Assembly (NCBI GenBank): GCA_963718665.1 | Contig: OY970359.1 | Coordinates: 576,001 to 640,000, forward strand | DNA: 64,000 nucleotides | Reading direction: 5' to 3' | DNA from: an uncultured Phycisphaerales bacterium | GTDB lineage: Bacteria > Planctomycetota > Phycisphaerae > Sedimentisphaerales > Anaerobacaceae | Shown here: positions 38,291 to 55,690 of the stretch, piece by piece | Layout of the letters: every line of letters begins with the position of its first letter | Numbering within the stretch: position 1 is the stretch's first letter | Translations under genes and position numbers: made by a program | The notes under the pieces: generated by a model | Database searches by the model: none | The model's input: only the letters and a program-made list of their open reading frames with translations | Told to the model about the DNA's origin: nothing

Positions 38291-40063
38291 ATGGCTAAAA
38301 GAATCATTCTAATCTCATCATTTCCCATTTGCGTCGTTCTTGTGATTATTGCCCTTATTTTGGCAGGCGTCGGACACGGACAACCGGCAAGTACCCCTGC
38401 AAACATTGAACAGGCAAAATCACAGACTATCTCATCGGTTAATTTGGGCAAATTAGATGACGCTAATACAGCGATTGATAAGCTTATCGCCGGCTATGCC
38501 AATAATGCGAATTCGGCCTCGACCCTTGCGGATGCCGCAAACCAGTGCGCCTGGGACAGAAATTACGATGGCGCCAATAGGTTATACCGTGCAGTTGTTG
38601 ATAAAGAGCCGAATAATCCAATGTCGGTTAAGGCCCGTTTAGGTTTGGCCCGGCTGAATGCCCTTACGCTTATTGAAGAAAAGAACTATCCTCCTGCTCA
38701 GCAGCAGGCCGATTCTATGGCCGTTGATTTCAACAGCGAATCGGACCTCCCGGTGGCATTATTTCATATCGGCAAGGAATTTACCTGGCAGCACAGATAT
38801 AGCGAGGCAAAAGACGCTCTTGCCCACATAGATAATAACTCCCTGTCTGATTCATTTTCAAAAGAGGTTCAATTGTGGACGGCAAGGGCGAATGTCTGCT
38901 CGCTTATCAACAAGACAACCGATACAGAGGTCGTTGCCGCAATAGATAAGCTGATGACTGATTTTGCGGGCGATTCGGGCTTGGCGGAGGCGGTTTACTG
39001 GATAAGCAAGGAATATGAGTGGAAAAAAGGCACATCGATTAACAGGGCGGGCTGGTACGACACGCCCAACAGCGTATATCAGAAAATAATGCAGGAGTTC
39101 AGCGATACGCCTTATGGTCAGGAGGCGGAATGGGACCAGAAGCGATTGGCATACCGGATGAAAATCTTCAAATTGATACAGGAGCCGAATCAGGCCGCAA
39201 CGGATGCCGCGATTGAAACTATGATAACTGACCTTAAAGGCAGACCTGAGCTTGCGGGTGAACTTTACTGGATTGCCTGCGGCTACGAAGAGCGGCCGGA
39301 TAAAGGTTCACAGGCAGAGCAGATGTACGCCCGGATAGTAAATGATTGCCCGGGAACGGACGAGGCGGACAGGGCCGTTCTCGATGTCCGGCGAAGGATT
39401 TTTAGCGACGTTCTCGATTCAGGCGACGTAAATTCGGCTTATACACTGCTGGACAATTTTATCGCTGACTTCAAACAGAATCTCTACGCCGGCGACTGCC
39501 TGGGCCGGGTTACTATGGGTTGTTATAAGAAGGCAGAGGAGCTTAGGGACCAGAATCAGCCGGATAAGGCAATGCTGTATCACCAGGTATGCGCGAATGT
39601 ATGGGAGCGGATACAAAACAACAGTCTGCCGATTACCAGCGACCTCGTGTATTTGTACTTCTACGTTGCCATTAATTATCACGAAATGCACAGGTGGACG
39701 GATGCTATCAATAATTATCAAAAAGTCCTCGACAACTGGCCTGATTTTGAACACGCCTGCGGGATACAGGCGGCAATCGGCGGCTGTTACGAAAAGCTTA
39801 GAGATAAGGAAGGAGTTCCGAAAGAAGGGGTAAATCCTTTAATAGAGGATGCCTACATAGCAATTTTGACTAATTACCCCAACTGTTATGCAATTAAAAA
39901 TGCGGCATATAAACTTGCCGGGATCATGCTGGAAAAAGGTGATAAGGCCTCTGCTGCGAAGTATTATAAGAAGTTTCTTGAAACAGCCAGACCTAATGAT
40001 GACCGTCTTGCACCTGTTAAAGCCAAACTTGCCGAATTGACCGCCGAAGGAGGGAACAACTAA
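38291..40063 (+). CDS. Secreted tetratricopeptide-repeat protein, head gene of the cassette array
   Basis: Signal-like N-terminus after GGAGG RBS; helical repeats (LAEAVYWI, LAGELYWI, AINNYQKVLDNWP, AAYKLA); stop overlaps the next ATG (TAATG). Confidence 0.85.
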   Translation: MAKRIILISSFPICVVLVIIALILAGVGHGQPASTPANIEQAKSQTISSVNLGKLDDANTAIDKLIAGYANNANSASTLADAANQCAWDRNYDGANRLYRAVVDKEPNNPMSVKARLGLARLNALTLIEEKNYPPAQQQADSMAVDFNSESDLPVALFHIGKEFTWQHRYSEAKDALAHIDNNSLSDSFSKEVQLWTARANVCSLINKTTDTEVVAAIDKLMTDFAGDSGLAEAVYWISKEYEWKKGTSINRAGWYDTPNSVYQKIMQEFSDTPYGQEAEWDQKRLAYRMKIFKLIQEPNQAATDAAIETMITDLKGRPELAGELYWIACGYEERPDKGSQAEQMYARIVNDCPGTDEADRAVLDVRRRIFSDVLDSGDVNSAYTLLDNFIADFKQNLYAGDCLGRVTMGCYKKAEELRDQNQPDKAMLYHQVCANVWERIQNNSLPITSDLVYLYFYVAINYHEMHRWTDAINNYQKVLDNWPDFEHACGIQAAIGGCYEKLRDKEGVPKEGVNPLIEDAYIAILTNYPNCYAIKNAAYKLAGIMLEKGDKASAAKYYKKFLETARPNDDRLAPVKAKLAELTAEGGNN

Positions 40064-40439
40064 TGATAATGCTGCTTACAAAAAAGACCTTATGGACGTA
40101 TATTATTACAAGCATGGTTTTATTTATAACAATACTTGTTAATGATGCCTTCGGTGTTGGTGGTGGTGGTGGCCATCCGCCTTGCCCGGTATGCTATAGC
40201 TGGGGTTATGATGATGTCTTGGATGAGTGGGGATGTTATATTTGGACCTGCGGTAATCAACAGTGTTGCAACGGAACATGTTTTGACCCTAGTACCACGG
40301 GATGCTGTAACGGCGTAACCTATGACCTTAGTTCCCAGGCATGTTGCGGCGGGGCGATTCAGACTAAAGGCGGCTGTATGGACTGCATAAATAACGCATG
40401 GGTATCCACTTGCGATTCCTCCCAGTGCCAGACCTGCGA
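39690..40439 (+). repeat. ~750-bp near-identical direct repeat, copy 1 (TPR 3' end plus Cys-rich 5' end); copy 2 at ~47735-48484
   Basis: Sequences align at a constant offset of 8045 bp (40063 vs 48108). Confidence 0.92.
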
Positions 40440-40983
40440 TGGTAGTGGCGATTGTGTATCAAAGTGCGACCCAAGCCAATGCCAGACCTGTGTGAACGGC
40501 AACTGTCCGGTTTGTTATCCGCACAAGTTGAACTGCTGTGATGATTACGATTGCTATCATTGTGTCGAGAAATCCTTCGGCGAAATCTGCCAACCATGTC
40601 TTTGGAAACCCTGGTCTTATGCGGTATTAATGACGTGTCATATGATGCCTGATCCACTATTTGACCCATGTTCGGATGGATGTTCAAATCCTTTTGGTGA
40701 CCATCCAGATGACCCCGCCGATTGTTGCGCTCCGGATAATTCGAGCTTTTATTGGGCTTGTTATAACCACGATTTCTGCTATCAAACCTGTGGAATGCCC
40801 AAAAGCCCTTGTGACAATTACTTTGGCGATGATATGGAAGCTGTATGTTCGAGCACAACTCTCTTATGCCATATTGTATGTGAGGCCCAAAGGGTAATAT
40901 ACTGGACGGCAGTATCACTTTGCGGAGAAGGCCCTTACGAAAGTGACCAATTAGATGCATGTGTTTGTTGTGATTGTTCTTAA
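40063..40983 (+). CDS. Cys-rich secreted protein, cassette A: constant di-Cys repeat N-terminus plus phospholipase A2-like C-terminus
   Basis: Full signal peptide, GVGGGGGHPPC, CCNG repeats; DGCS...FYWACYNHDFCYQTCG..K..CD..F matches the sPLA2 His-Asp motif (group XII-like spacing). Confidence 0.85.
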   Translation: MIMLLTKKTLWTYIITSMVLFITILVNDAFGVGGGGGHPPCPVCYSWGYDDVLDEWGCYIWTCGNQQCCNGTCFDPSTTGCCNGVTYDLSSQACCGGAIQTKGGCMDCINNAWVSTCDSSQCQTCDGSGDCVSKCDPSQCQTCVNGNCPVCYPHKLNCCDDYDCYHCVEKSFGEICQPCLWKPWSYAVLMTCHMMPDPLFDPCSDGCSNPFGDHPDDPADCCAPDNSSFYWACYNHDFCYQTCGMPKSPCDNYFGDDMEAVCSSTTLLCHIVCEAQRVIYWTAVSLCGEGPYESDQLDACVCCDCS

Positions 40984-41015
40984 CAGGTAAAATGAAATGA
41001 AATAGGAGATTTGAA

Positions 41016-42224
41016 ATGCGATGCTTATCGAAAAATATGGCCGGACTTGTGATTTGTATTATGACGTCAAATTTATACGCAGAAAAATTGACCGTGGTTT
41101 GGGAAAAAGAATTAGGCGATGACAATAATCTCAGTTATGTCGGTCACGAGGCAGTATGCAATAATGGGACTCTACAAGTTGTTGGTTATGCGTTTGATTC
41201 AAAAGCGCGTTCATCCGGAAAGTACTGGTTCTGGCAGATTAATTCTGACGGTAACATCGTATCACATGAAGATTTCCACGCTGTTTCAAATGTACGTCCC
41301 TCGGATATTATTTTCGGCTCATGGCTAACAAAAGGATTGAAAGTTGACCAGAGCGGTATGTACTGTGCGGGCAAGTTCGGCTCAAAGGAGCACTCTTTCG
41401 CTAAGTTCGGAGCAAGCGACAAAAAATTGCTCAAAAAACAAATCCCAATTGACCCCAATAAAAAACCTGGTGATTCGAATCATATGTCAGAAGAATTTGT
41501 TCTCAAAATGGCTGACCTGTCGGATAACAAGTTCCTTTTGGTGGGAAGAGACTCGCAATCTAATGGTTTTGCCGCAAAAGTCGATTCGGATGGTGACGTT
41601 TATTGGTGCAGAGTGTTTGAGAAAAGCAAATTGTCTTTTATTGTCGATGCTGTTGAAGTCGAAAATAGTTTGATATTGTTGGAGTGTTTTTCAGATGGCG
41701 GACCTAAAAATAATTTCTATGAAGGTTTTAATTGTCGCCTTATAAAATGTGATTCCGACGGTAATATTCTTTATGAAAAGTCCTTTATCGGAAGCGGCGC
41801 ATTTCCAAACAAATACCCGGAATTGCACAAAACCGATTCAAACAGTTTCTCAGTCGGTTACGACAAACAGTGCGATTTGACCAGAATAGAATATTGTGTG
41901 GTCAAATATGATGATAAGCTAAATCTGTTGTCTGAAAAAACAATCATCGATAAGGAAACCAAAACACCTGTTTATATACATATATTGCCGGTTTCATCTG
42001 GAGGGTTTATTACTGCTTATAATGATACTTTGGGCAAAATTACCGTTAGCAAATATTCGGGTTCAGGAGATTTATCGACCTCTTTGACTTTGGATAATAT
42101 TGTTGTAATCGATGATTTCCGAATTGTCGGTTCAGGCAATAAGTGCTTTATTATCGCATTGTCAATGCCCGCAAGTACCGATAACCGTGTGAAGACGAAA
42201 ATAGCTGCTTTGACTATTGAATAA
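41016..42224 (+). CDS. Secreted beta-propeller-like partner protein (cassette A)
   Basis: RBS AGGAG, signal peptide, repeated (K/Q)xDSDGxxxW-type blades; paralog at 51126. Confidence 0.8.
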   Translation: MRCLSKNMAGLVICIMTSNLYAEKLTVVWEKELGDDNNLSYVGHEAVCNNGTLQVVGYAFDSKARSSGKYWFWQINSDGNIVSHEDFHAVSNVRPSDIIFGSWLTKGLKVDQSGMYCAGKFGSKEHSFAKFGASDKKLLKKQIPIDPNKKPGDSNHMSEEFVLKMADLSDNKFLLVGRDSQSNGFAAKVDSDGDVYWCRVFEKSKLSFIVDAVEVENSLILLECFSDGGPKNNFYEGFNCRLIKCDSDGNILYEKSFIGSGAFPNKYPELHKTDSNSFSVGYDKQCDLTRIEYCVVKYDDKLNLLSEKTIIDKETKTPVYIHILPVSSGGFITAYNDTLGKITVSKYSGSGDLSTSLTLDNIVVIDDFRIVGSGNKCFIIALSMPASTDNRVKTKIAALTIE

Positions 42225-42681
42225 GAAAGTGAAACGTATGGGTAAGCATTTTCTGGCAGTCTTGTATTCTGTATTGTTGTTATTACTATGTGTCAGTGGA
42301 TGTTATGTGGCAGGCGGAAGGGGCGGAGGTGGTATTACGCATTATAGTCCACTAAGTAGTGTGGATTGCGGCAAACCATGGGTAATTTCAGTCGGCTATT
42401 CTCTTGCGATGGTTGACCGGAAAGAAAAACCCAGCAAGCTTATAGAAAGATTTAAGGCCGGTGTGGTTCATATTCATTATTCCTCAGATAATAATTTTAT
42501 CGACGTTCCTATGGTTTTTGAAAGCGTGAATCCTGAAACTGGCAAATTGAAAATGAAGGCAGACATGAAACCAATCCCCTGTGATTCCAATATTGAATAT
42601 GTAGGTTACCTTATAGATTTCATGTTCGACAATCACTATAAAAAGTCAAAATATCATATTGTCCCCGTCACCAAAAAATAA
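42217..42681 (+). CDS. Small lipoprotein (cassette A)
   Basis: TTG start overlapping the previous stop, lipobox VSGC; diverged paralog at 52327. Confidence 0.78.
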   Translation: MNKKVKRMGKHFLAVLYSVLLLLLCVSGCYVAGGRGGGGITHYSPLSSVDCGKPWVISVGYSLAMVDRKEKPSKLIERFKAGVVHIHYSSDNNFIDVPMVFESVNPETGKLKMKADMKPIPCDSNIEYVGYLIDFMFDNHYKKSKYHIVPVTKK

Positions 42682-42714: not shown

Positions 42715-43860
42715 ATGAAAAGAATGGTGTTATTTTGTTTTATAATCTCATACATTTTATGTGGTTGCAGCTACAATAATAAAACGGAAGATAAAGAATA
42801 TATTCGGCGGTATGGAATGATGGTTGGTTATGTTCCCGGGCCGTTTTTCCAATATGGCCAAACAAAACTGGCCGAATCTCGGCATTTCGACCTTGGTAAT
42901 ATTCCTAACGAAGTTCGCAAAATAAAAGCTGTTGTTCCATTTTCTAATCCCGGCAGAGAGCCGTTAGTTATCGAAAAAGTTAACAGTCCCTGCCCCTGCT
43001 TTTCCGGCTGGGATGGTGATAAAGAGGTCACGCCTGATCAAAATGGCGTGATAAATATTTATTTTGATAAGGACAAAATAGAATCCGGCCATGTAAGTCG
43101 TTTTGTGCGCATAAATACAAACGACCCTGCCAATAGCGAAGTAAAAATACTTTTCGACCTCAACGTTATTCGTAGTCCGGAGGAAGAAGACATTCTTTCG
43201 CTGCGAGATGAAATCCAGAGGATAAAAAGCGAATTACAGTCCCTTCGTAAGGAAATCCGGCAACTGGCCCCTGCACGGAATACTGGCAGTAAGAGGGAAT
43301 CTGTCCCTTCAAATAAGTTGGATACGAATGTTTATGATGTTAATATTGGTTCATCTCCGACCCTCGGACCTGACAATGCCCCTGTCACAATTGTGGAATT
43401 TTTCGACTTTCAGTGCCCTTTCTGTGCGAAGGAATATCCAAAGATTAAGCAAATTATGGCTGAATACCCCGGCAAAATACGGGTTGTTTTTAAGCATTTT
43501 CCGCTGAATTTTCACAAGCAGGCCTTCGCCGTCCATGCGGTAACGGAATTTGCTCTTCGCCAAAAAGGGCCGGATGCTTTTTGGAAATTGCATGATATGA
43601 TTATGGCCGACCCCGAAAAGATAGATACCGCGACTTTACGAACATACGCACAAAAAATCGGATTGGATATAACCGAATTGGACAAACTATGGGCGGATGA
43701 GAAATCAATAGCGGAATTACTAAAGGCGGACAAAGAACTGGCGGAAAAATGCAACGTCAACAGCACGCCCACAATATTTATCAACGGCAGGAAACTTGCT
43801 GACCGTTCTTTGGATGGCTATCGCAGCCGAATTAAGGAAACGCTGAGCCAGGCCAAATGA
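42715..43860 (+). CDS. Lipoprotein with DUF1573-like Ig domain and DsbA-like thioredoxin domain
   Basis: LCGC lipobox; FSNPGREPLVIEKVNSPCPC; APVTIVEFFDFQCPFC; VFKHFPL; VNSTPTIFING. Confidence 0.9.
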   Translation: MKRMVLFCFIISYILCGCSYNNKTEDKEYIRRYGMMVGYVPGPFFQYGQTKLAESRHFDLGNIPNEVRKIKAVVPFSNPGREPLVIEKVNSPCPCFSGWDGDKEVTPDQNGVINIYFDKDKIESGHVSRFVRINTNDPANSEVKILFDLNVIRSPEEEDILSLRDEIQRIKSELQSLRKEIRQLAPARNTGSKRESVPSNKLDTNVYDVNIGSSPTLGPDNAPVTIVEFFDFQCPFCAKEYPKIKQIMAEYPGKIRVVFKHFPLNFHKQAFAVHAVTEFALRQKGPDAFWKLHDMIMADPEKIDTATLRTYAQKIGLDITELDKLWADEKSIAELLKADKELAEKCNVNSTPTIFINGRKLADRSLDGYRSRIKETLSQAK

Positions 43861-43862
43861 TA

Positions 43863-43942
43863 GATTTTGAATACTCCTGCAGGGCACAGGCAGCCATCGG
43901 CTGTTTTACGGGCTAATTATCGTTATGGTTTTGCTCTTAACA
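43863..43942 (+). repeat. Cassette junction element, copy 1 (TPR-derived left arm plus invariant 47-mer at 43896-43942)
   Basis: ATCGGCTGTTTTACGGGCTAATTATCGTTATGGTTTTGCTCTTAACA. Confidence 0.92.
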
Positions 43943-44794
43943 GCGACTGTTTATGATGCCTGTGGTGTTGGTGGTGGTGGCCATCCGCCTTGCCCGATAT
44001 GCTATAGCTGGGGTTATGATGATGTCTTGGATGAGTGGGGATGTTATATTTGGACCTGCGGTAAGCAACAGTGTTGCAACGGAACATGTTATGACCCTAG
44101 TACCACGGGATGCTGTAACGGCGTAACCTATGACCTTAGTTCCCAGGCATGTTGCGGCGGGGCGATTCAGACTAAAGGCGGCTGTATGGACTGCATAAAT
44201 AACGCATGGGTATCCACTTGCGATTCCTCCCAGTGCCAGACCTGCGTAGGCGGCCAATGCAAGGTTTGCGGCGGCGACGCAAACCAGGCCTGCTGTAACG
44301 GCACATGCTACGACATTAGCACCCAGGGCTGCTGTTATGGAGAATTGTACAGTTTTAATGACTGTAAGTATTGCGACGACGAAGCCGAAGCCCCGTTATC
44401 CACTTGTGACCCAAGCCAGTGCGAGACCTGCGATGGCAATGGCAGTTGTGTGGTTTGCGGCAACGACCCAAATCAATTCTGCTGTAACGGCGAATGCTAC
44501 GAGAACGACGATGACGATTCTGAAATGCTACTACAAACCGGCCGGTTAACCTTCAACCAAGGCAAATGGCAGGAGTCTATTTCCTATTTTGAAAGAGCGA
44601 TGACCAAATTTCCTGCCGGCAGTAAACCGCCCGATGCCCTCTATGCACTGGCGAGGATGTATGAAGAAACAGGGGATATATCTAAGGCAATGGATACCTA
44701 CGGGCAATTGCTCACTTTATTGGAAGACGGAAGCCCGGTAATTCAAAAGGTAAAAACGCGTATTATATCGTTCCAGGAAGAATCCGGAAATTAG
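43925..44794 (+). CDS. Cys-rich protein, cassette B (5'-truncated leader): constant N-terminus plus TPR C-terminus
   Basis: Same constant region, further CCNG repeats, acidic NDDDDSE linker, TPR pair (GKWQESISYFE...DALYALARMYEETG). Confidence 0.75.
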   Translation: MVLLLTATVYDACGVGGGGHPPCPICYSWGYDDVLDEWGCYIWTCGKQQCCNGTCYDPSTTGCCNGVTYDLSSQACCGGAIQTKGGCMDCINNAWVSTCDSSQCQTCVGGQCKVCGGDANQACCNGTCYDISTQGCCYGELYSFNDCKYCDDEAEAPLSTCDPSQCETCDGNGSCVVCGNDPNQFCCNGECYENDDDDSEMLLQTGRLTFNQGKWQESISYFERAMTKFPAGSKPPDALYALARMYEETGDISKAMDTYGQLLTLLEDGSPVIQKVKTRIISFQEESGN

Positions 44795-44809: not shown

Positions 44810-45151
44810 ATGGAACTTTTGAAGCGTATGAATTATGAGATTGTTTTTATTATAGCGACAACCATTGTTGCGATATGTACGGCGCTTCCTGCTTGCACGA
44901 TACGCGGAGAAAGAACTTTTGGAGGTGACAATACTGGCAAACGTTGCACACAGAATGTTTCACCTAATCCGAAATGCGCAACCAGACCTGGTGGAGAACC
45001 TTGCCCTCTTATACATACTCAGTGTAAACTCTCATGCACTGGTTCTTCAACTTGTACTGTTTGTTCAGATGCATCTGATGCATGTCGTCCCTGTAGGTTA
45101 GACCTTGTCCACTGTATAAATCAGCCCAACGAGGATTGTTATAGTGAGTAA
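44810..45151 (+). CDS. Small secreted Cys-rich peptide (13 Cys, possible GG cleavage site)
   Basis: RBS AAGGAG, hydrophobic leader, ERTFGG then 11 Cys. Confidence 0.75.
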   Translation: MELLKRMNYEIVFIIATTIVAICTALPACTIRGERTFGGDNTGKRCTQNVSPNPKCATRPGGEPCPLIHTQCKLSCTGSSTCTVCSDASDACRPCRLDLVHCINQPNEDCYSE

Positions 45152-45195: not shown

Positions 45196-46257
45196 ATGAT
45201 TAAGAAAAATTATTTATTGACTGCCATAATCGTTATGTCTCTGATGGTGTCTTCTGAGGGTATGGCGCTTACGGCCAGCCAGGTCCTCGATAAGTATAAG
45301 GAGTCGCTTAACTGGACTCGGTCTGTTTCAATGCGTGTTGATGTAAATGTGGACATTCTTGAGTGGCCTGACGCAAATATCCCCCGGTATTATTCAAGGC
45401 CTCAATTTGTTTATCGGCAAGACGGAAATAACTGCGAATGGATTGGAAAGGGCCTTGTATTCGATGCTAACTGGAAATTATTGGATGACAGCAGCTTAAA
45501 CATCCAGGACATCTTTGCAAATGGCCGGTATTTTACCATTTCTCCCACACAACATGGTCCGAACAAGATACCCCGTTATGCGATGATTACGCGCGATTCC
45601 AATCCGTATTATCAGCAGCGATTAGGAGAATTGAGCGCATCAAGCATATTTGGAGGGCCTTTGTTTGGCAAGATGGGTGGAAATAGTAATTATAGTATTG
45701 CCGACCTTCTTGGTAGTGACACAAATCTGCATTTGCGTCCGGATACAGAACCAATAAGAGGTAATTTATGTTATGTTCTTGAGGGCATAACAAAATATGG
45801 TCGCATAACGGCATGGATATCGTCAGACAATGCATACAATGCCCTGAAATGGTCTGTGGAAAAGGGACCAAATGACCTCGTTAATGATAAACCTGCAGGA
45901 ACAATTGTAGAAAAAAGTATTTATGAATTTGACCTCGTTGATTTCCATGAAGTAAACGGGATAATTGTTCCTAAAGATGCCTATTTAACAACAACTGGAA
46001 AATTATCTTTTGATGGTAAAACTATTGCTCGTTATACATATCAGATCTCGCAGGTCTCTTTAAAGCCGGATTTCAAAGCCCTTGGCGCCTTCACGCCAAA
46101 TGTGCCGGAGGGAACACGCGTAAAACTACTGGAAGCGCCGGGGGTTCGATATGTCTGGCGAAACAACAAAGCTGTCCTCGATGTCAATGAGGCAACGTTT
46201 GAAAAAATCGATAAGACAATCGAGCAGTTCAAGCAACAGCAAGATGCGAACCAATAG
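45196..46257 (+). CDS. Secreted beta-rich partner protein (LolA-like fold suspected)
   Basis: RBS AGGAG, signal peptide, IRGNLCYVLEG, NGIIVPK, FTPNVPEGTRV. Confidence 0.75.
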   Translation: MIKKNYLLTAIIVMSLMVSSEGMALTASQVLDKYKESLNWTRSVSMRVDVNVDILEWPDANIPRYYSRPQFVYRQDGNNCEWIGKGLVFDANWKLLDDSSLNIQDIFANGRYFTISPTQHGPNKIPRYAMITRDSNPYYQQRLGELSASSIFGGPLFGKMGGNSNYSIADLLGSDTNLHLRPDTEPIRGNLCYVLEGITKYGRITAWISSDNAYNALKWSVEKGPNDLVNDKPAGTIVEKSIYEFDLVDFHEVNGIIVPKDAYLTTTGKLSFDGKTIARYTYQISQVSLKPDFKALGAFTPNVPEGTRVKLLEAPGVRYVWRNNKAVLDVNEATFEKIDKTIEQFKQQQDANQ

Positions 46258-46277: not shown

Positions 46278-47108
46278 GTGAAACCGATATCACTTAAACC
46301 ATTGCTATTTTTGGTTTTTCTGGTCGTTACTCTATGCGGCTTTTGCTTTGATTGCCAAGCAGCAGAACCAAATACTGTTTCCCTCCAGCAGAAATCATCC
46401 GGTGGTTATTGCGGGATTTATTCTTTGTATGGGGCGATGAAATATTTTGGGGTGCATGTTGAACCGAATGAGTTGCTGAAACCCGAATATATCGGCTCGA
46501 TTCAGGGTAGCTCTCTTGCTGAGTTGAAAAAGGCCGCAGAGAAATATGGCTTGTTTGCTATTCCGGTCGCGCGTCTATCTACGAAAGACCTTCGTAAATC
46601 ATCTTTACCCGTAATTATTCACGTCAAATCCTCACCAACCGACAGAAAGTATGACCACTATGAGTTATTTTTAGGTTCAAAGCAGGGACAAGCGTTGATT
46701 TATGACCCTCCGACCCCTATTGAATCGGTGGAGTTTTGGACATTGGCTCCGCGATGGGACGGCAGCGGGTTACTTATATCTAATAAGCCAATAAACCCCA
46801 ATTTTGTTTTTGCATCTTCCCGCTTGCGATTCGTCGGATATACGGGGATTGCAGTATTATTAGTTCTTGCAGCAAGGTGGGGACATAGATATTTGTTTGA
46901 TTATCGCCCAGCGATGTCTCGTAAACAAAAATTTCTATTGAGTATAGGTCAGTGTATGATTCTGGTACTGATTTCGGTTTTTATCGCTATTGTGTATCAT
47001 TCATACAATGATGAGGGATTGCTTTTGCGTAAACAGGCAACTCAAGCTATTCAACTGGCGTATAAATCAAACCATAACAATATACACAAGACAGGCGATA
47101 CCAAATGA
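46278..47108 (+). CDS. Stand-alone C39-like cysteine peptidase with C-terminal TM helices
   Basis: YCGIYSL (Cys), GSSLAELKKAAEKYGL, LPVIIHV...HYEL (His), IYDP (Asp), RWDGSGLLIS; no ABC domain. Confidence 0.85.
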   Translation: MKPISLKPLLFLVFLVVTLCGFCFDCQAAEPNTVSLQQKSSGGYCGIYSLYGAMKYFGVHVEPNELLKPEYIGSIQGSSLAELKKAAEKYGLFAIPVARLSTKDLRKSSLPVIIHVKSSPTDRKYDHYELFLGSKQGQALIYDPPTPIESVEFWTLAPRWDGSGLLISNKPINPNFVFASSRLRFVGYTGIAVLLVLAARWGHRYLFDYRPAMSRKQKFLLSIGQCMILVLISVFIAIVYHSYNDEGLLLRKQATQAIQLAYKSNHNNIHKTGDTK

Positions 47109-47685: not shown

Positions 47686-48108
47686 ATGGATGCCGAGGCC
47701 ACGTTAATTGCCGCTGTCAATTACCATGAGATGGGCAGGTGGACGGACGCTATCAATAATTATCAAAAAGTCCTCGACAACTGGCCTGATTTTGAACACG
47801 CCTGCGGGATACAGGCGGCAATCGGCGGCTGTTACGAAAAGCTTAGAGATAAGGAAGGAGTTCCGAAAGAAGGGGTAAATCCTTTAATAGAGGATGCCTA
47901 CATAGCAATTTTGACTAATTACCCCAACTGTTATGCAATTAAAAATGCGGCATATAAACTTGCCGGGATCATGCTGGAAAAAGGTGATAAGGCCTCTGCT
48001 GCGAAGTATTATAAGAAGTTTCTTGAAACAGCCAGACCTAATGATGACCGTCTTGCACCTGTTAAAGCCAAACTTGCCGAATTGACCGCCGAAGGAGGGA
48101 ACAACTAA
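47686..48108 (+). pseudogene. 5'-truncated copy of the TPR gene's 3' end
   Basis: C-terminal ~120 aa identical to 38291-40063; lacks signal peptide and N-terminal ~450 aa. Confidence 0.85.
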
Positions 48109-49019
48109 TGATAATGCTGCTTACAAAAAAGACCTTATGGACGTATATTATTACAAGCATGGTTTTATTTATAACAATACTTGTTAATGATGCCTTCGGT
48201 GTTGGTGGTGGTGGTGGCCATCCGCCTTGCCCGATATGCTATAGCTGGGGTTATGATGATGTCTTGGATGAGTGGGGATGTTATATTTGGACCTGCGGTA
48301 ATCAACAGTGTTGCAACGGAACATGTTTTGACCCTAGTACCAAGGGATGCTGTAATGGCGTAACCTATGACCTTAGTTCCCAGGCATGTTGCGGCGGGGC
48401 GATTCAGACTAAAGGCGGCTGTATGGGTTGCGTAAATGATAACTGGGTATCCCTTTGCGACTCCTCCCAGTGCCAGACCTGCGTAGATGGTAACTGCAAA
48501 TCTTGCAATGAAGCAGATCCGAATAAAGATTGCTGTAACGGCGCATGCTATGACCCCGCAACCCAGGGATGCTGTAACGGCGAAATCTATGACCCCAATA
48601 CTGAAAAGTGTTGCTGCAATGGTACACCTCTCCCGAAGTGTAAGTTAACTGATGGAGAGGTTTGTGCAGACCCTTGTGGCCATTATCCCCCATGTAATTG
48701 GAGATGTACTTATATGACGGGTGATAATTGTCTTGGTGTATATTCAAGAGAATACAAAGGATGGACAGAAAAAATATGTAGCGGAGGTTGTCCAGGCGAA
48801 TGCGAGTCCAATGAAAGCGTTTGTTATATACAAACACAATGTCAAACAGTTTGGATGCCTGTAGTGTCTCAGCAATGCGTTGGGCCCTCGCCAGCTGGCG
48901 GATGTAAGTCGCTAAATGAAAATAATTTTGGCGTATGGTGCTTTCACTGTGACGTTATGCCTAATACTCAATGTAGTATAAAAAGACAAAATGATGCCTG
49001 TATAAGTTGTGGAGAATAA
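48108..49019 (+). CDS. Cys-rich secreted protein, cassette C: full leader, constant N-terminus plus unique Cys-rich C-terminus
   Basis: Leader identical to cassette A; diverges after CDSSQCQTC. Confidence 0.85.
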   Translation: MIMLLTKKTLWTYIITSMVLFITILVNDAFGVGGGGGHPPCPICYSWGYDDVLDEWGCYIWTCGNQQCCNGTCFDPSTKGCCNGVTYDLSSQACCGGAIQTKGGCMGCVNDNWVSLCDSSQCQTCVDGNCKSCNEADPNKDCCNGACYDPATQGCCNGEIYDPNTEKCCCNGTPLPKCKLTDGEVCADPCGHYPPCNWRCTYMTGDNCLGVYSREYKGWTEKICSGGCPGECESNESVCYIQTQCQTVWMPVVSQQCVGPSPAGGCKSLNENNFGVWCFHCDVMPNTQCSIKRQNDACISCGE

Positions 49020-49021
49020 TT

Positions 49022-50131
49022 ATGAAATCTGAAAAAATAATGTTTGTGATTGTCAGTTTATTGGCTTTTACGGCTTTTGTATATGGTGAGCCAAATGATT
49101 TTAAGCCGGTTTCGAGTAATGACGTAAACTACGTTTTGAATATGCTCGCAGCCCATACCCAGGATAATTATGACCGCATTAACACATGGGAGGGGGAAAT
49201 AGAAAATACAGACTATATATGGTTCCACGGAACATCTGCCGAAAGAATTTTTAGGGGGTATATGGATAGCAATGAACAAGCCCCTGATGAAATTAAAGAA
49301 ACAGTAAAGGGCAACAATGGCTTTTTGGTTGATAGCAAGAAGGACAACCTCTTAATTCGTAGCACTCCTGTCGGAAAAATAACTTTATTGGATATTAAAA
49401 CCAATCGTTCATATGAATCAGGTTTGCAAAGAAGTGAAGATGCTGTAATTACAACGCCAGATTATCAGATAAAGTGCGACCCTTACAGATTGAACCGTGT
49501 TTCAAAAGAAACAATACAAAGGATGGGTACCAAAAGTCCTGTCTCAGGTAATATTATGATGGCTATGGGGGAGAATGACCCAAGAATTGTATTAAAAGGC
49601 CGAGGTTTACCTGTCTGGTCTATATTGGAATCTTTGGCCAAAAAAGGGTTAGAGCAGGGAGGTGTTTCCAACAAACTCGAAGAAAGAGTCAATGTCGGTT
49701 TAGTTGATTATCGAATAGAAATACCAGGTGTTGCAGATGGAAATGTTGTGGGATTCCTGAGTATGCTTTTTTCAGGCAATAAAGGTTTTCTTGTAACAGA
49801 ATACGAGACCAGAAACAAAGATGGCAGCCTCCGAGCAAAAGAGATGATAGATTTTACTTTGGTTGATGGTGTCTATTTGCCGGCCCGAATCCATTACACT
49901 TCTTATGAAGATAGTGGAAAAATGATGGAGGATAGGATGCAAATATTCAAAAATATGCGGGTCAATAAAACTATTCCGGAGGATTCTTTTACATATAAAA
50001 ACGCCGGTTTGAAAAATGGTGATTTATTCGACGACAAAATCGAAGGCAAGAAATACAAATACCAGGACGCGAATCTTGTCTCGATTGAAGAGCCAAATAA
50101 GTTGCCAGAGCCGAATAATCCGCCAAAATGA
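49022..50131 (+). CDS. Secreted beta-rich partner protein (cassette C)
   Basis: RBS GGAG, signal peptide, VDGVYLPARI, VNKTIPEDSFT. Confidence 0.78.
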   Translation: MKSEKIMFVIVSLLAFTAFVYGEPNDFKPVSSNDVNYVLNMLAAHTQDNYDRINTWEGEIENTDYIWFHGTSAERIFRGYMDSNEQAPDEIKETVKGNNGFLVDSKKDNLLIRSTPVGKITLLDIKTNRSYESGLQRSEDAVITTPDYQIKCDPYRLNRVSKETIQRMGTKSPVSGNIMMAMGENDPRIVLKGRGLPVWSILESLAKKGLEQGGVSNKLEERVNVGLVDYRIEIPGVADGNVVGFLSMLFSGNKGFLVTEYETRNKDGSLRAKEMIDFTLVDGVYLPARIHYTSYEDSGKMMEDRMQIFKNMRVNKTIPEDSFTYKNAGLKNGDLFDDKIEGKKYKYQDANLVSIEEPNKLPEPNNPPK

Positions 50132-50154: not shown

Positions 50155-50244
50155 CAACTGGCCTGATTTTGAACCCGCCTGCGGAATACAGGTGGCCATC
50201 GGCTGTTTTACGGGCTAATTATCGTTATGGTTTTGCTCTTAACA
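50155..50244 (+). repeat. Cassette junction element, copy 2 (47-mer at 50198-50244)
   Basis: CAACTGGCCTGATTTTGAACCCGCCTGCGGAATACAGGTGGCC plus the invariant 47-mer. Confidence 0.92.
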
Positions 50245-51093
50245 GCGACTGTTAATGATGCCTGTGGTGTTGGTGGTGGTGGCCATCCGCCTTGCCCGGT
50301 ATGCTATAGCTGGGGTTATGATGATGTCTTGGATGAGTGGGGATGTTATATTTGGACCTGCGGTAATCAACAGTGTTGCAACGGAACATGTTTTGACCCT
50401 AGTACCACGGGATGCTGTAACGGCGTAACCTATGACCTTAGTTCCCAGGCATGTTGCGGCGGGGCGATTCAGACTAAAGGCGGCTGTATGGGTTGCGTAA
50501 ATGATAACTGGGTATCCCTTTGCGACTCCTCCCAGTGCCAGACCTGCGGCGGCAATGGCATTTGCGTATCAAAGTGCGACCCAAGCCAATGCCAGACCTG
50601 TGTGAACGGCAACTGTCCGGTTTGTTATCCGCACAAGTTGAACTGCTGTGATGATTACGATTGCTATCATTGTGTCGAGAAATCCTTCGGCGAAATCTGC
50701 CAACCATGTCTTTGGAAACCCTGGTCTTATGCGGTATTAATGACGTGTAACAGAGTCGATGATCCAACATTTAATCCAAAAACAGATGGATGTTCAAATC
50801 CTTTTGGCGACCATCCTAATGACCCAGCCGATTGTTGCGCTCCGGACAATTCGAGCTTTTATTGGGCTTGTTATAACCACGATTTTTGTTATCAGACATG
50901 TGGTGCCGATAAAGGCGGTTGTGACTCTGCCTTTGGCAATGATATGGAAGCTGTTTGTGCAGGCACAAGTCTCTTATGCCATGTTGTATGTGAAGCGCAA
51001 AGAGTGATATATTGGGCGGCAGTTTCACTCTGCGGAGAAGGCCCTTACGAAAGTGACCAATTAGATGCATGTGTTTGTTGTGATTGTTCTTAA
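50227..51093 (+). CDS. Cys-rich protein, cassette D (5'-truncated leader): phospholipase A2-like C-terminus, allele of A
   Basis: ACYNHDFCYQTCGADKGGCDSAF. Confidence 0.8.
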   Translation: MVLLLTATVNDACGVGGGGHPPCPVCYSWGYDDVLDEWGCYIWTCGNQQCCNGTCFDPSTTGCCNGVTYDLSSQACCGGAIQTKGGCMGCVNDNWVSLCDSSQCQTCGGNGICVSKCDPSQCQTCVNGNCPVCYPHKLNCCDDYDCYHCVEKSFGEICQPCLWKPWSYAVLMTCNRVDDPTFNPKTDGCSNPFGDHPNDPADCCAPDNSSFYWACYNHDFCYQTCGADKGGCDSAFGNDMEAVCAGTSLLCHVVCEAQRVIYWAAVSLCGEGPYESDQLDACVCCDCS

Positions 51094-51125
51094 CAGGTAA
51101 AATGAAATGAAATAGGAGATTTGAA

Positions 51126-52334
51126 ATGCGATGCTTATCGAAAAATATGGCCGGACTCGTGATTTGTATTATGGCATCAAACTTATACGCGGAGAAGTTG
51201 ACCGTGGTTTGGGAAAAAGAATTAGGCGATGACAATAATCTCAGTTATGTCGGTCACGAGGCAGTATGCAATAATGGGACTCTACAAGTTGTTGGTTATG
51301 CGTTTGATTCAAAAACGCGTTCATCCGGAAAGTACTGGTTCTGGCAGATTAATTCTGACGGTAACATCGTATCACATGAAGATTTCCACGCTGTTTCAAA
51401 TGTGCGTCCCTCGGATATTATTTTTGGCTCATGGCTAACAAAAGGATTGAAAGTTGACCAGAGCGGTATGTACTGTGCGGGCAAGTTCGGCTCAAAGGAA
51501 CATTCTTTCGCCAAATTCGGAGCTAACGATAAAAAATTGCTAAAAAAACAAATACCGGCTGACCCGAATAAAAACCCGAGCGACTCAAATGATAAATCAG
51601 AGGAGTTTGTCCTCAAGATGGTTGACCTGTCAGATAACAAGTTTCTTTTGGTAGGAAGAGATGCAAAATCTAATGGTTTTGCCGCAAAAGTCGATTCGGA
51701 TGGTGATGTTTATTGGTGCAGAGTGTTTGAGAAAAGCAAATTGTCTTTTATTGTCGATGCTGTTGAAGTCGAAAATAGTTTGATATTGTTGGAGTGTTTT
51801 TCGGATGGCGGACCTAAAAATAATTTCTATGAAGGTTTTAATTGTCGCCTTATAAAATGTGATTCCGACGGTAATATTCTTTATGAAAAGTCCTTTATCG
51901 GAAGCGGCGCATTTCCAAACAAATACCCGGAATTACACAAAACCGATTCAAACAGCTTCTTAGTCGGTTATGACAAACAGTGCGATTTGACCAAGATAGA
52001 ATATTGTGTGGTCAAATATGATGATAAGCTAAATCTGTTGTCTGAAAAAACAATCATCGATAAGGAAACCAAAACACCTGTTTATATACATATATTGCCG
52101 GTTTCATCTGGAGGGTTTATTACTGCTTATAATGATACTTTGGGCAAAATTACCGTTAGCAAATATTCGGGTTCAGGAGATTTATCGACCTCTTTGACTT
52201 TGGATAATATTGTTGTAATCGATGATTTCCGAATTGCTGGTTCAGACAATAAGTATTTTGTCATCGCATTGTCAATGCCCGCAAGCACCGATAACCGTGT
52301 TAAAACCAAGATAGCCGCCTTGAATATTGAATAA
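51126..52334 (+). CDS. Secreted beta-propeller-like partner protein (cassette D)
   Basis: Same length (402 aa) as 41016-42224, about 18 substitutions by eye. Confidence 0.8.
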   Translation: MRCLSKNMAGLVICIMASNLYAEKLTVVWEKELGDDNNLSYVGHEAVCNNGTLQVVGYAFDSKTRSSGKYWFWQINSDGNIVSHEDFHAVSNVRPSDIIFGSWLTKGLKVDQSGMYCAGKFGSKEHSFAKFGANDKKLLKKQIPADPNKNPSDSNDKSEEFVLKMVDLSDNKFLLVGRDAKSNGFAAKVDSDGDVYWCRVFEKSKLSFIVDAVEVENSLILLECFSDGGPKNNFYEGFNCRLIKCDSDGNILYEKSFIGSGAFPNKYPELHKTDSNSFLVGYDKQCDLTKIEYCVVKYDDKLNLLSEKTIIDKETKTPVYIHILPVSSGGFITAYNDTLGKITVSKYSGSGDLSTSLTLDNIVVIDDFRIAGSDNKYFVIALSMPASTDNRVKTKIAALNIE

Positions 52335-52782
52335 AAAGGGAAAACATACGCGTAAATATTGCTCGGTATCGCTATATTTATTATTGTCTTTGGAACTACT
52401 ATGTATCAGCGGATGTCAAGTCGCAGGCGGTGGTGGCATGTTCTATTGCCCTCCAAACAATATTATTTGCGATAAACCATGGTATATTACAGTGAAATAT
52501 GTGGTTGTTCCGATTGACCCGAAAGAAAGATATGGTAAGCTGACTGAAAGATATAAAGATGTTATGATACATATTCGCAATTCCGTAAATAGTGATTTTG
52601 TCGCCGTGCCTATGGTTGTAGAGAACGCGAATCCAGCAAAGGGCGAAATACAATACATCGCAAATATGAAAGCGATTCCCTGTAACGCCGGTATTACGTA
52701 TGTGGAATATTATATAGATGAAATGTTTAAGGGTGTTTACAATGGAACAAAATCATACAGGGTCCCCGTAAACAAAAACTGA
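52327..52782 (+). CDS. Small lipoprotein (cassette D)
   Basis: Lipobox ISGC; shares CxKPW, VPMV, IPC and VPV with 42217-42681. Confidence 0.78.
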   Translation: MNKKGKHTRKYCSVSLYLLLSLELLCISGCQVAGGGGMFYCPPNNIICDKPWYITVKYVVVPIDPKERYGKLTERYKDVMIHIRNSVNSDFVAVPMVVENANPAKGEIQYIANMKAIPCNAGITYVEYYIDEMFKGVYNGTKSYRVPVNKN

Positions 52783-52814
52783 TTTTTAGTATGTAACCTC
52801 CATGGGAAATCTAA

Positions 52815-53975
52815 ATGAAGAAGGCAGCGTTATTTTGTCTTATAGTAGTGTGTATTTTATGCGGATGCAGGCACAATCAGAATCAGGACGCAGAATATAT
52901 TCAGAGATATGGAATGATGGTTGGTTATGTTCCCGGACCATTTTTTCACTATGGTCAAACCAAACTGGCCGAATCGCGTCATTTTGACCTCGGTGATATT
53001 CCGCATGAAGTTCATAAAATAACAGCTACTATTCCTTTCACCAATCAAGGCAGAGAAACGTTGATTATCAAAAAAGTTGATAGCCCCTGCCCCTGCTTTG
53101 CCGGATGGGATGGCGATAAAGAGCTTGCCCCTCGCCAAAAAGGGGTGATTTACCAAAAGGGAGTGATTAATGTTTACTTCGACAAGGACAAAATAGAATC
53201 CGGACACGTAACCCGTTTTGTGCGTATAAATACAAATGACCCGTCCAATAACGAAATAAAAATATTCTTCGACTTCAATGTTATGCGCAGCCCGGAAGAA
53301 GAAGATATTCGCTCGTTACGAGATGAAGTCCAGAGGATAAAAGGCGAGTTGCAGACCCTTCGTAAGGAGATTCGACAGTTTACTCCCGCAAAAAACGCAA
53401 GCAATAACAGGAGAGCTGCCCCCGCAAACAATCCGGACACGAATGTTTACGACGTTAATATCGGCACATCACCCACCCTCGGTCCGGATAGTGCCCCTGT
53501 TACAATTGTTGAATTTTTTGACTTCCAGTGCCCGTTCTGCACAAAGGAATATCCAAAGATTAAGCAAATTATGGCTGAATACCCCGGCAAAATACGGCTT
53601 GTCTTTAAGCATTTCCCGTTGGATTTTCACAAGCAGGCCTTCGCCGCCAACGCCGTAACGGAATTTGCTCTTCGTCAAAAAGGGCCGGAAGCTTTCTGGG
53701 AGCTTCACGACATGATTTTGGCTGACCCCGAAAAAATCGACGCCGCAACTTTACGAGCATACGCACAAAAACTCGGATTGGATATAACCGAATTGGACAA
53801 ACTCTGGGCGGATGAGAAGGCGATAGTAGAATTACTAAAGGCAGACAAAGAACTGGCAGAAAAATGCAACGTCAACAGCACGCCCACAATATTTATCAAT
53901 GGCAGGAAACTTACTGACCGTTCTCTGGATGGCTATCGCAACAAAATTAAGGAAACGCTGAGCCAGGCCAAATAA
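52815..53975 (+). CDS. DUF1573-like plus DsbA-like lipoprotein (cassette D)
   Basis: FFDFQCPFC, VNSTPT; paralog of 42715-43860. Confidence 0.9.
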   Translation: MKKAALFCLIVVCILCGCRHNQNQDAEYIQRYGMMVGYVPGPFFHYGQTKLAESRHFDLGDIPHEVHKITATIPFTNQGRETLIIKKVDSPCPCFAGWDGDKELAPRQKGVIYQKGVINVYFDKDKIESGHVTRFVRINTNDPSNNEIKIFFDFNVMRSPEEEDIRSLRDEVQRIKGELQTLRKEIRQFTPAKNASNNRRAAPANNPDTNVYDVNIGTSPTLGPDSAPVTIVEFFDFQCPFCTKEYPKIKQIMAEYPGKIRLVFKHFPLDFHKQAFAANAVTEFALRQKGPEAFWELHDMILADPEKIDAATLRAYAQKLGLDITELDKLWADEKAIVELLKADKELAEKCNVNSTPTIFINGRKLTDRSLDGYRNKIKETLSQAK

Positions 53976-53977
53976 TT

Positions 53978-54059
53978 CTGACTTTGAATACGCCTGCGGG
54001 ATAGAGGCAGCTATCGGCTGTTTTACGGGCTAATTATCGTTATGGTTTTGCTCTTAACA
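53978..54059 (+). repeat. Cassette junction element, copy 3 (47-mer at 54013-54059)
   Basis: CTGACTTTGAATACGCCTGCGGGATAGAGGCAGCT plus the invariant 47-mer. Confidence 0.92.
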
Positions 54060-54620
54060 GCGACTGTTTATGATGCCTGTGGTGTTGGTGGTGGTGGTCA
54101 TCCGCCTTGCCCGATATGCTATAGCTGGGGTTATGATGATGTCTTGGATGAGTGGGGATGTTATATTTGGACCTGCGGTAATCAACAGTGTTGCAACGGA
54201 ACATGTTTTGACCCTAGTACCAAGGGATGCTGTAACGGCACACTCTATAACCTTAGCACCCAGCAGTGCTGTAGTGACATCTCGCCTTCCTATGTATGTG
54301 GTATTAATCAAGCATGCTGCAACGGGTCCTGCTGTAACCCATACAAGTGCCAGACTTGTTTTAGTGGTGAATGTCAGGTTTTATACATAGTGTGTCCAAG
54401 TGCCGCTGGGGGGTGCCTGGATGGCGGAGCTTGTGGAGTCGGAAATTATCATGAAGAAATTCAGTGGCTAACCATGTATCCTATGGACGAATACCCATGT
54501 CAAGATACACTCTATACATGTACTGTGTGGACACCATTCGTAGATGAAAATTGTATGGTATCTATAGCTGTTTACTGTCCCGAAACGTATTTGGGATGTA
54601 ACCCGGCAATTGGTACTTAG
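54042..54620 (+). CDS. Cys-rich protein, cassette E (5'-truncated leader): shorter constant region plus unique Cys-rich C-terminus
   Basis: Matches the others up to DPSTKGCCNG, then diverges. Confidence 0.78.
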   Translation: MVLLLTATVYDACGVGGGGHPPCPICYSWGYDDVLDEWGCYIWTCGNQQCCNGTCFDPSTKGCCNGTLYNLSTQQCCSDISPSYVCGINQACCNGSCCNPYKCQTCFSGECQVLYIVCPSAAGGCLDGGACGVGNYHEEIQWLTMYPMDEYPCQDTLYTCTVWTPFVDENCMVSIAVYCPETYLGCNPAIGT

Positions 54621-54630
54621 GAGACAAAAA

Positions 54631-55551
54631 ATGAAATCGTCTTTGGTTTTATGTTCAGTAACAATCATAGTCGGGGCATTATGCCCTTCAACAACATCGG
54701 CTATTACTGCTGATGAGATTATCAACGGATTAGAGCAAAGAGAGCAAAGCATAAAAACTATTCATGGGGAATTTGATGTATGGGCTCAAATAAGAACAAA
54801 TGATGGGAACACCGAAGAAATTGAGAAGCAATACGAATGGACCAAAAATGGGAACACCCAAAAACTAATCACAGAATACAAAATGCTACCAGAAAGGCTC
54901 AAGCCTAAAGAGCAAAATAATATATGCCCTACTTGCCCAAATCCAATGAAAATGCATGTAATGGCTAATAAGGAAATTCGCTTATTTGATGGGCAAACGA
55001 CTCAACAATTTTTACCAGAAAGCAATAGTGCCGCCATTTTCCCAGGAGACCAGATATTTTTTGCAGGTAAAGTGCCTGAAGACTGGTTGATGAAAAGAAT
55101 CAAGCGGAAATCATTGTCGGTTTTTTTAAAACAACAAGATAATTTCTTGAAATATACAGGAGACATTAATTTGGAAGGGCAGCGATGTCATATCCTAGAA
55201 TTTAGCGATCACAATACGTATGATGGCAAACTATATATTGTAGATGGACAGAAACTATTTACGACCAAATTTGAGATAAACATAATAAATCACAATCTTC
55301 CATTCAACACACGAGAAGAGGATATATTCAGCGATTTCAAATCTTACGGTAATATAACTTTGCCATCGAAGGTTACCGTGACTGTTTACGATGTTTATCC
55401 GGAGAAAGAGCAATTATCAATGAAAGAAATTTTCACCGTTAAAAAATTAGAGATTAACGGTCAAATCACTAATTCTGATTTAAGCATGCGACTCCCAGTT
55501 GGTACGCGTGTTCATGATTCCGTAGCGAATAAAGATTTTGTTGTTCATTAG
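54631..55551 (+). CDS. Secreted beta-rich partner protein (cassette E; LolA-like fold suspected)
   Basis: RBS AGGAG, signal peptide, FDGQT, LEGQRCHILE, GNITLPSK, LPVGTRVHD. Confidence 0.78.
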   Translation: MKSSLVLCSVTIIVGALCPSTTSAITADEIINGLEQREQSIKTIHGEFDVWAQIRTNDGNTEEIEKQYEWTKNGNTQKLITEYKMLPERLKPKEQNNICPTCPNPMKMHVMANKEIRLFDGQTTQQFLPESNSAAIFPGDQIFFAGKVPEDWLMKRIKRKSLSVFLKQQDNFLKYTGDINLEGQRCHILEFSDHNTYDGKLYIVDGQKLFTTKFEINIINHNLPFNTREEDIFSDFKSYGNITLPSKVTVTVYDVYPEKEQLSMKEIFTVKKLEINGQITNSDLSMRLPVGTRVHDSVANKDFVVH

Positions 55552-55571
55552 AATTTTCAAGGTGGTATTAT

Positions 55572-55690
55572 CCTGACTTTGTACCCGCCTGCGGGATACA
55601 GGCGGCCATCGGCTGTTTTACGGGCTAATTATCGTTATGGTTTTGCTCTTAACAACGATTGTTAACGATACATACGGCCTTGGCCCGTGT
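55572..55690 (+). pseudogene. Junction element copy 4 (47-mer at 55608-55654) with a remnant cassette start
   Basis: Invariant 47-mer, then MVLLLTTIVNDTYGLGPC, after which similarity is lost. Confidence 0.8.

Follow-up and report, generated by a model that had tools for sequence, protein, structure and literature searches.

What kind of system repeats one gene beginning several times in a row and ends each copy differently? The question is raised by a window of 64,000 nucleotides (nt; the whole stretch analysed, positions 576,001 to 640,000 of contig OY970359.1, assembly GCA_963718665.1) from an uncultured Phycisphaerales bacterium, a sediment planctomycete. In this window a 17.4-kb single-strand (+) block of 19 open reading frames (ORFs) and a remnant lies between a histidine kinase gene and nusA. 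The array, which is headed by a TPR gene, is a real, actively recombining, lineage-restricted cassette system. We consider it probable that it is a polymorphic toxin-immunity system comparable to maf, lineage-restricted, exported by Sec and directed at the cell envelope, with toxicity, immunity and binding putative. Below, L-numbers denote loci of relatives, G000 the genome under study and C1 its contig.

A constant block joined to different tails

The gene order is TPR-A1-B1-C1-D1-A2-E-F-C39-MauE-TPR 3' fragment-A3-H-A4-B2-C2-D2-A5-I-remnant (Table 1). A sequence-only reading of the region, made earlier without database searches, had described five genes and a remnant on one strand. All are present: the Cys-rich carrier ORFs lie at 40063, 43925, 48108, 50227 and 54042 and the remnant at 55637, all on the + strand. 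The near-identical block that they were said to share is found in all five A genes, and in the six genome copies this constant 5' block has 168–279 nt in common at 94.6–99.2% identity. The genome holds six carriers with five tail types. Four of these types are in the window, as had been described, A1 and A4 having one in common. The region is also AT-richer than its surroundings, as proposed, with a GC content of 0.430 vs 0.492 for the genome; a value this low is found in 0.15% of genome windows of the same size. Moreover, more than 8.5% Cys is found in 9 of the 2352 genome ORFs, and 7 of those 9 are in the array and a second locus.

Misassembly is unlikely, because the duplicated genes are not identical (A1/A4 88%, B 95.5%, D 79% and C about 44–47% at the amino acid level) and several junctions (39049-40188, 46940-47778, 49448-50223 and 54407-55633) are bridged by independent contigs from short reads; no single contig listed spans the whole array. 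Promoter and terminator scans of the array gave chance level only, and PADLOC gave 0/13.

The partner is inherited with the tail

Each tail had been described as followed by exported partner genes specific to it. Among 39 hand-picked cargo-partner pairs, partner similarity followed tail similarity (rho 0.32, reached by 0 of 2000 permutations); for head similarity the corresponding value was 0.06, reached by 168 of 2000. The tail score was at least 20 bits in 28 of 741 comparisons, and in 28 of these 28 the partner score was at least 75 bits. Nine new pairs were then examined (15 of 20 stretches read, 5 dropped as repeats). Four had no tail match. In all five that had one, the best partner match was in the same locus; as one of the five (L137) repeats L092, the independent count is 4/4. 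The partner therefore appears to be inherited with the tail, not with the head. This part of the earlier claim stood; the partners F, H and I, on the other hand, belong to one LolA-fold family and are not unrelated.

Modules also change position between genomes. The A2-E-F-C39-MauE block is downstream here and in the lead in L070; A6 with J leads in this genome and is downstream in L017; the phospholipase A2 (PLA2) tail with B leads here, and in L050 and L114 it has a downstream place behind TPR fragments.

Cargo tails

The A1 and A4 tails both match PF09056 under the curated cut-off (A1, E=5.9e-4; A4, Table 1), and the A1 tail matches the Streptomyces PLA2 1faz (E=0.005) with the His-Asp motif aligned. 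According to the available text of PMC3482391, Tox-PLA2 domains have the motifs DxC[ST], CxxHxxxYxN and C and occur at the tips of Rhs proteins; the tail contains DGCS and CYNHDFCY, with the final N of CxxHxxxYxN replaced by T. By these motifs the A1/A4 tail is a PLA2 domain of the Tox-PLA2 type, with predicted activity. A HMMER search with this tail gave 465 relatives at E<=0.001, and RHS repeats were found in 6 of the 27 longer matches selected from the best 150 of the 465. A word-index search for longer proteins with the same tail had found none.

The carrier was described as a Sec-exported di-cysteine-repeat protein. By inspection, signal peptides are indeed seen on A1, A3 and A6, where they are full, and on E. 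The repeats appear galaxin-like, at a score under the cut-off (A6 repeats vs Galaxin_repeat, E=1.2e-4). Homologs of E occur in L070 and also directly behind a TPR paralog in L033, and the lead gene of L070 is an A2-type fusion that has a different N-terminus. The A5 tail has no homolog among the loci L014-L117 searched. The model of the A3 tail is unreliable (predicted local distance difference test score, pLDDT, 45), and the predicted complex of this tail with H (score 0.01, partner fold uncertain) was used neither for nor against any reading.

Partner and accessory genes

The AlphaFold model of H (pLDDT 82.7) matches LolA3 in Foldseek (E=2e-10) and a DUF1329 protein with Z=15.1 (root-mean-square deviation 4.0, 217 aligned residues, about 11% identity). 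As modelled, H has a LolA half-barrel fold with a helical lid. Among the 2352 genome ORFs, a profile built on 16 partners of relatives gives its four best scores to H, I, J and F (E=6e-14 to 5.5e-5; next ORF 0.07), the rank of H not being independent, since three of the 16 are distant H relatives. The alignment of H matches that of J/F/I with a probability of 93.8%. F, H, I and J are one divergent LolA-fold family, H by its model and F, I and J by profile homology. The L052 stretch 13107-13814 joins the N-terminus of a carrier to the C-terminal part of a partner of the H family and is probably a deletion product.

The Atlas neighbours of B1 (PQQ_2/DUF5122) offer as a lead a resemblance to beta-propellers, and B homologs come after PLA2 tails in L050 and L114. 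C1 has six homologs, all unnamed or hypothetical, one of them 96% identical and labelled Sedimentisphaerales. On inspection, every partner has an N-terminal signal, in keeping with a role outside the cytoplasm. The DsbA, MauE and C39 genes of the sequence-only reading are confirmed by Pfam above cut-off, DsbA together with DUF1573 occurring twice. MauE has a role in disulfide maturation. The C39 gene is stand-alone and accompanies one module only. Rather than cognate partners, the DsbA-like D, MauE and C39 appear to be accessory genes for maturation.

The lead TPR gene and its distribution

A second locus (G000:C1:2227420-2231625) encodes an identical TPR protein, followed by the tail of the sixth carrier (A6) and the partner J; window positions 38046-40392 (2.3 kb) are 99.3% identical to C1:2227420-2229765. 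The TPR family was matched in 17 of the 23 other genomes of the genus and in 37 of 120 genomes of the family (search with a single protein). In the 250 other genomes of the phylum there was no match at E<=1e-40, up to four candidates being scored per listed genome. By these searches the family is limited to one planctomycete family among the genomes searched, and 17 of the 18 records with relatives are labelled planctomycete. In L081/L110, whose record is titled Verrucomicrobiota, a distant homolog of the TPR gene comes with a secreted cargo that has an Ig domain.

Among 60 near-full-length non-redundant TPR genes, six have no visible downstream gene. The downstream genes of the other 54 have a hydrophobic N-terminus in 49 cases, of which 28 are Cys-rich (three of these loci had been retrieved by a Cys-rich query) and 3 are Rhs-like giants. 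In L057 and L131 a short tail containing Cys forms the end of the TPR gene itself, and a LolA-type partner comes next. In L001, L018, L019 and L084, TPR-cargo modules occupy one chromosomal site beside the same conserved gene, and the cargo differs per genome.

The survey of genomes for tail diversity and neighbours, which had been proposed as a check, revealed varied tails and partners behind the TPR family in relatives. In L056 the TPR gene leads into a Rhs gene of 2852 aa with a HEAT partner, along with two Rhs orphans, and in L062 into a Rhs gene of 2757 aa. The earlier idea that a TPR partner is used instead of Rhs therefore holds only in part, since the family also works with Rhs. In L046, L086 and L093, HExxH tails with HEAT partners follow the TPR family; the available text of PMC3482391 counts HEAT repeats among immunity proteins. 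In L117 (19651-21058) a carrier-like Cys-rich N-terminus is fused directly to RHS repeats. A stand-alone 1326-aa Rhs gene with a signal-like N-terminus, a GC content of 0.43 and no TPR gene upstream lies at G000:C1:550193-554173, about 22 kb before the window.

Recombination within and between cassettes

The six carriers and the remnant fall into two groups. In A1, A3 and A6 the signal peptide is complete, and the start overlaps the stop codon of the TPR gene or fragment. A2, A4, A5 and the remnant are 5'-truncated, without start and signal-peptide n-region and with in-frame stops upstream. These truncated cassettes are probably silent. Their heads consist of ~50 bp of the TPR gene joined mid-way into another signal-peptide allele, which is intact in the relatives L084 and L086, and all four have one common junction with ~8 bp of microhomology.

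The constant blocks of A1 and A4 have 0 nucleotide differences in 72 codons, while their tails differ with a synonymous divergence (dS) of 0.44 and a ratio of nonsynonymous to synonymous divergence (dN/dS) of 0.26. Moreover, the mid-block of A1 matches A2 and that of A4 matches A3, although A1 and A4 have a common tail. In all variable parts compared, dN/dS is 0.10–0.41, and copies differ up to a dS of about 1. Because of the identical A1/A4 block beside diverged tails, the mosaic mid-blocks and the low dN/dS, the constant block is, as far as these comparisons tell, homogenised by recombination, and purifying selection acts on the tails and partners, which are old.

One candidate explanation was a site for site-specific recombination within the TPR gene. 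The ~50-bp TPR piece holds a short inverted repeat; it starts four cassettes here and ends L001, L018, L071 and L084. Against site specificity, other TPR fragments begin anywhere from residue about 471 to 587, the four heads here have their common junction at microhomology, and a look by eye through the remaining ORFs of the window revealed no recognisable recombinase. We prefer homologous or microhomology recombination together with inheritance. The last cassette head with the remnant (55572-55745) finishes in a ~20-bp motif that also closes the second locus; two more genome matches to the end motifs sit in unrelated genes. Switching within the population was considered from contig depths and a single low-depth joint (48150-55630), a candidate set aside as the evidence was too weak.

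Comparison with known systems

By analogy, the layout is nearest to the maf islands of Neisseria, described in the available text of PMC4287609 and PMC3482391 as mafA-mafB-mafI with mafB-CT cassettes. In both, a lineage-restricted invariant gene stands just upstream of a signal-peptide cargo that has a constant N-terminus and a variable tip and is followed by a partner. Both have downstream cassettes, some of them without a start, several loci per genome and an unclear export route. Unlike maf, the array has no sequence match to MafA or MafB-N (DUF1020) in Pfam. Its upstream protein is a TPR solenoid, its carrier a disulfide repeat stalk and its tips PLA2 or disulfide domains; its partners are exported, its cassettes hold pieces of the upstream gene and disulfide-maturation genes travel along.

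The array resembles Rhs systems in its PLA2 tail family, which is also found on Rhs proteins, and in the TPR-headed Rhs loci with orphans in relatives. It differs from them by the absence of YD repeats and Rhs core and by cargoes of 110–320 aa; the sole genome match to Rhs is about 60 kb from the array. Like contact-dependent inhibition (CDI; CdiB-CdiA-CdiI), it has an upstream partner gene, a putative toxin, a putative immunity gene and orphans on one strand; unlike CDI, it has a small disulfide-bonded cargo and, by Pfam, neither haemagglutinin repeats nor a CdiB/TpsB-like gene. The H model shares its fold with the LolA superfamily (LolA3, DUF1329, TP0789-like, RseB/MucB), but here several divergent paralogs are each tied to one cargo family and not to the lol pathway. 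The Myxococcus kin-recognition receptor TraA/TraB is a polymorphic surface protein with cysteine-rich repeats; TraA has a variable N-terminal part and an invariant partner, whereas in the array the tip is C-terminal and the partner varies along with it.

Several of the features by which polymorphic toxins are defined (Zhang 2012) were found: a constant N-terminal part with a variable C-terminus, a downstream gene inherited with the tip, stand-alone cassettes with traces of recombination with the lead gene, and a secretion signature in the form of signal peptides. Judged by its sequence, the array falls outside Maf, Rhs and CDI and shows these testable general features. No description of a TPR/Cys-rich/LolA-fold system was found in the literature searched, which included few subscription journals and no supplements.

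Toxins, displayed proteins or modified peptides

The polymorphic-toxin architecture is supported more strongly than when it was first proposed, because of the PLA2 tip, the co-inheritance of tail and partner, the swaps between lead and cassette positions, the homogenised block and the Rhs loci behind the TPR family. In the mechanism that we propose, the lead TPR gene and the first cargo, which are translationally coupled, would be transcribed together with the partner. The signal peptide would take the cargo over the inner membrane, where D and MauE, whose genes are present, may assist disulfide formation. The constant adjacency of the genes and the TPR-cargo fusions suggest that the TPR protein escorts or displays the cargo. 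The di-cysteine repeats would form a stalk, and the variable tip would attack the envelope of a neighbour cell: as a PLA2 in A1/A4, whose motif is seen, and probably as membrane- or periplasm-active disulfide domains in A3, A5, A6 and E. The next gene, co-inherited with the tip, would encode a periplasmic antidote, the propeller-like B against PLA2 and the LolA-fold proteins against disulfide tips. As the sequence traces suggest, recombination would use the constant 5' block or the TPR 3' fragment to swap tip and partner between lead and downstream slots, and downstream partner genes may go on protecting against old toxins.

Several observations weigh against such a toxin-immunity system. A recognisable toxin domain is found in only two of the six carrier tails (A1 and A4), with Pfam scores under cut-off. 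The A3, A5, A6 and E tails have no Pfam or NCBIfam match, and the A3 tail family (nine homologous tails) has 12 invariant Cys and nothing else invariant. The A2 tail, which matches the C-terminus of the L051 TPR protein (41% identity, E=3e-26), is by this match the 3' end of a TPR paralog and not an effector; this and the missing starts and n-regions of A2, A4, A5 and the remnant correct the earlier description. LolA-fold partners go with four of the seven cargo genes of the genome (A3, A5, A6 and E). The LolA fold is known for carriage of lipids and lipoproteins. A literature search gave no example of a LolA-like immunity protein, and in the available text of PMC12419801, where simple pairs of signal-peptide toxin and periplasmic immunity protein are found, the LolA-like proteins are not immunity proteins. 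Linkage of adjacent tail and partner, plus kinship of the genomes, could also give co-inheritance without binding. In L058, L060, L098 and L108, TPR-led PKD/LamG/beta-helix/carboxypeptidase-regulatory cargoes have no recognised toxin tip, and in L051, L077 and L124 the TPR gene runs straight into C39-MauE. The genome has five secretin matches, to none of which the outer-membrane step is assigned. VipB has no match in this 94.6% complete genome; searches of the genome for Slam and ShlB (PF03865) were uninformative, as no control genome matched either.

Some of these observations would be expected if the TPR protein served to export or display variable surface or matrix proteins, with tips acting as ligands, adhesins or identity tags. 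The LolA-fold partners would then be cognate carriers or receptors for folding, transport or kin recognition, and the PLA2 and Rhs tips minority passengers. The pairing of the four cargo genes with LolA-fold proteins, the cysteine scaffold as all that tails conserve, the adhesin-like giants behind the same TPR family and the TPR tip kept on A2 in two genomes all favour this explanation, as do the galaxin-like repeats. Such repeats are known from matrix proteins. We nevertheless regard this main rival as unlikely, since enzymatic tips (PLA2, HExxH) sit in the same slot on the same carriers, each with its own partner family. Furthermore, H-family partners are only 20–32% identical to H, while the closest TPR proteins are 50–72% identical, and truncated cassettes and partners in toxin-immunity order fit the polymorphic toxin layout as given in the available text of PMC3482391.

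That the array is a cluster for ribosomally synthesised and post-translationally modified peptides (RiPPs) or bacteriocins, with C39 cutting Cys-rich precursors on which thiol enzymes or radical SAM proteins also act, seems improbable. The C39, MauE and thioredoxin genes, the small Cys-rich cargoes such as E and the radical SAM/SPASM genes in L052 and L054 would suit it. However, the cargoes carry Sec-type signal peptides, neither locus of this genome has a radical SAM gene, and the C39 peptidase, which goes with one module only, is neither fused to nor beside an ATP-binding cassette (ABC) exporter in the array, the hallmark of C39-ABC bacteriocin and RiPP systems. A RiPP could still be the product of the E-F-C39-MauE block alone. 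Radical SAM/SPASM-type genes are found in or beside TPR-led loci with Cys-rich ORFs in L052 and L054 (Pfam) and in L082 and L135 (by eye); these loci are possibly a ranthipeptide-like sub-type. Most improbable is an assembly artefact or a neutral tandem duplication of decaying genes. The near-identical repeats, the lack of a spanning contig and the three 5'-truncated carriers recall one, but the divergence and low dN/dS of the copies, the contigs across junctions and the many relatives with the same layout speak against it.

A wider proposal is tentative, and we think it somewhat unlikely as a whole. The TPR protein would define an undescribed planctomycete pathway that exports or displays cargoes as small as disulfide peptides of 110 aa and as large as Rhs proteins of 2,800 aa. 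The commonest cargo would be a new class of antibacterial effectors, hypervariable and non-enzymatic, built on a disulfide scaffold, and a cognate LolA-fold protein would neutralise each of them; TPR 3' ends and cargo heads would travel as matched recognition pairs, and A2 would be an adaptor chaining cargoes.

Features of the array and its surroundings

Table 1. Features of the array, in window positions.
Feature	Position	Strand	Basis
Region before the TPR gene, present with it at the second locus too; probable promoter and leader	38046..38290	+	sequence identity
Lead TPR gene, 590 aa from ATG 38291 (ORF open from 38258), N-terminal hydrophobic segment	38291..40063	+	
A1: full signal peptide, constant block, di-cysteine repeats, predicted PLA2 tail, 45 Cys	40063..40983	+	
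B1: exported, beta-propeller-like; candidate PLA2 immunity protein	41016..42224	+	Atlas neighbours, homologs behind PLA2 tails
C1: putative lipoprotein, small; the gene that diverges most within the duplicated block	42217..42681	+	identity to C2
D1: DUF1573 and DsbA-like thioredoxin, putative lipoprotein	42715..43860	+	Pfam above cut-off
Cassette head: ~50 bp of TPR gene joined to truncated signal-peptide allele	43863..43924	+	
A2: 5'-truncated carrier with last ~95 aa of TPR paralog	43925..44794	+	sequence match
E: secreted Cys-rich cargo, 113 aa, 13 Cys, without carrier repeats	44810..45151	+	
F: partner of E, LolA-fold family	45196..46257	+	profile E=5.5e-5
Stand-alone C39 peptidase, N-terminal signal	46278..47108	+	PF03412 E=3e-13
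MauE/DoxX membrane protein	47105..47563	+	PF07291 E=2e-22
3' fragment of TPR gene (residues 471-601), 98% identical	47713..48108	+	
A3: carrier with full signal peptide and constant block; tail disulfide-rich, non-enzymatic	48108..49019	+	
H: exported LolA-fold partner of A3	49007..50131	+	AlphaFold model, Foldseek
Cassette head: TPR piece and truncated leader	50155..50226	+	
A4: 5'-truncated carrier, second predicted PLA2 allele	50227..51093	+	PF09056 E=2.4e-5, under cut-off
B2 (51126-52334), C2 (52327-52782), D2 (52815-53975): diverged second copy of PLA2 module	51126..53975	+	
Cassette head: TPR piece and truncated leader	53978..54041	+	
A5: 5'-truncated carrier, short Cys-rich tail	54042..54620	+	
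I: partner of A5, LolA-fold family	54610..55551	+	profile E=1.2e-9
Last cassette head and remnant of carrier with different N-terminus	55572..55745	+	

Elsewhere in the window, a glmS-like gene (by eye; 7416-10069) is split over three overlapping ORFs, which suggests frameshifts or assembly errors, and the histidine kinase gene (35567-37995) appears split too. A tRNA-Pro (11350-11424) and a tRNA-Lys (28206-28278) are present; neither adjoins the array. Other low-GC regions of the genome (G000:C1:1182000-1212000 and 2384000-2412000) resemble polysaccharide biosynthesis clusters.

Significance

Most planctomycetes of the Sedimentisphaerales type are uncultured, and the literature searched yielded no account of the conflict systems that they have. 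The locus offers small, expressible cargo-partner pairs from a system found in 17 of the 23 other genomes of the genus, and the TPR family is a candidate for the handling of Sec-type Rhs proteins in this lineage. If the LolA-fold partners are antidotes, they would represent a new role for the fold and their cargoes a new disulfide-rich bacterial effector family; if they are carriers or receptors, the array would be a new recognition or display system.

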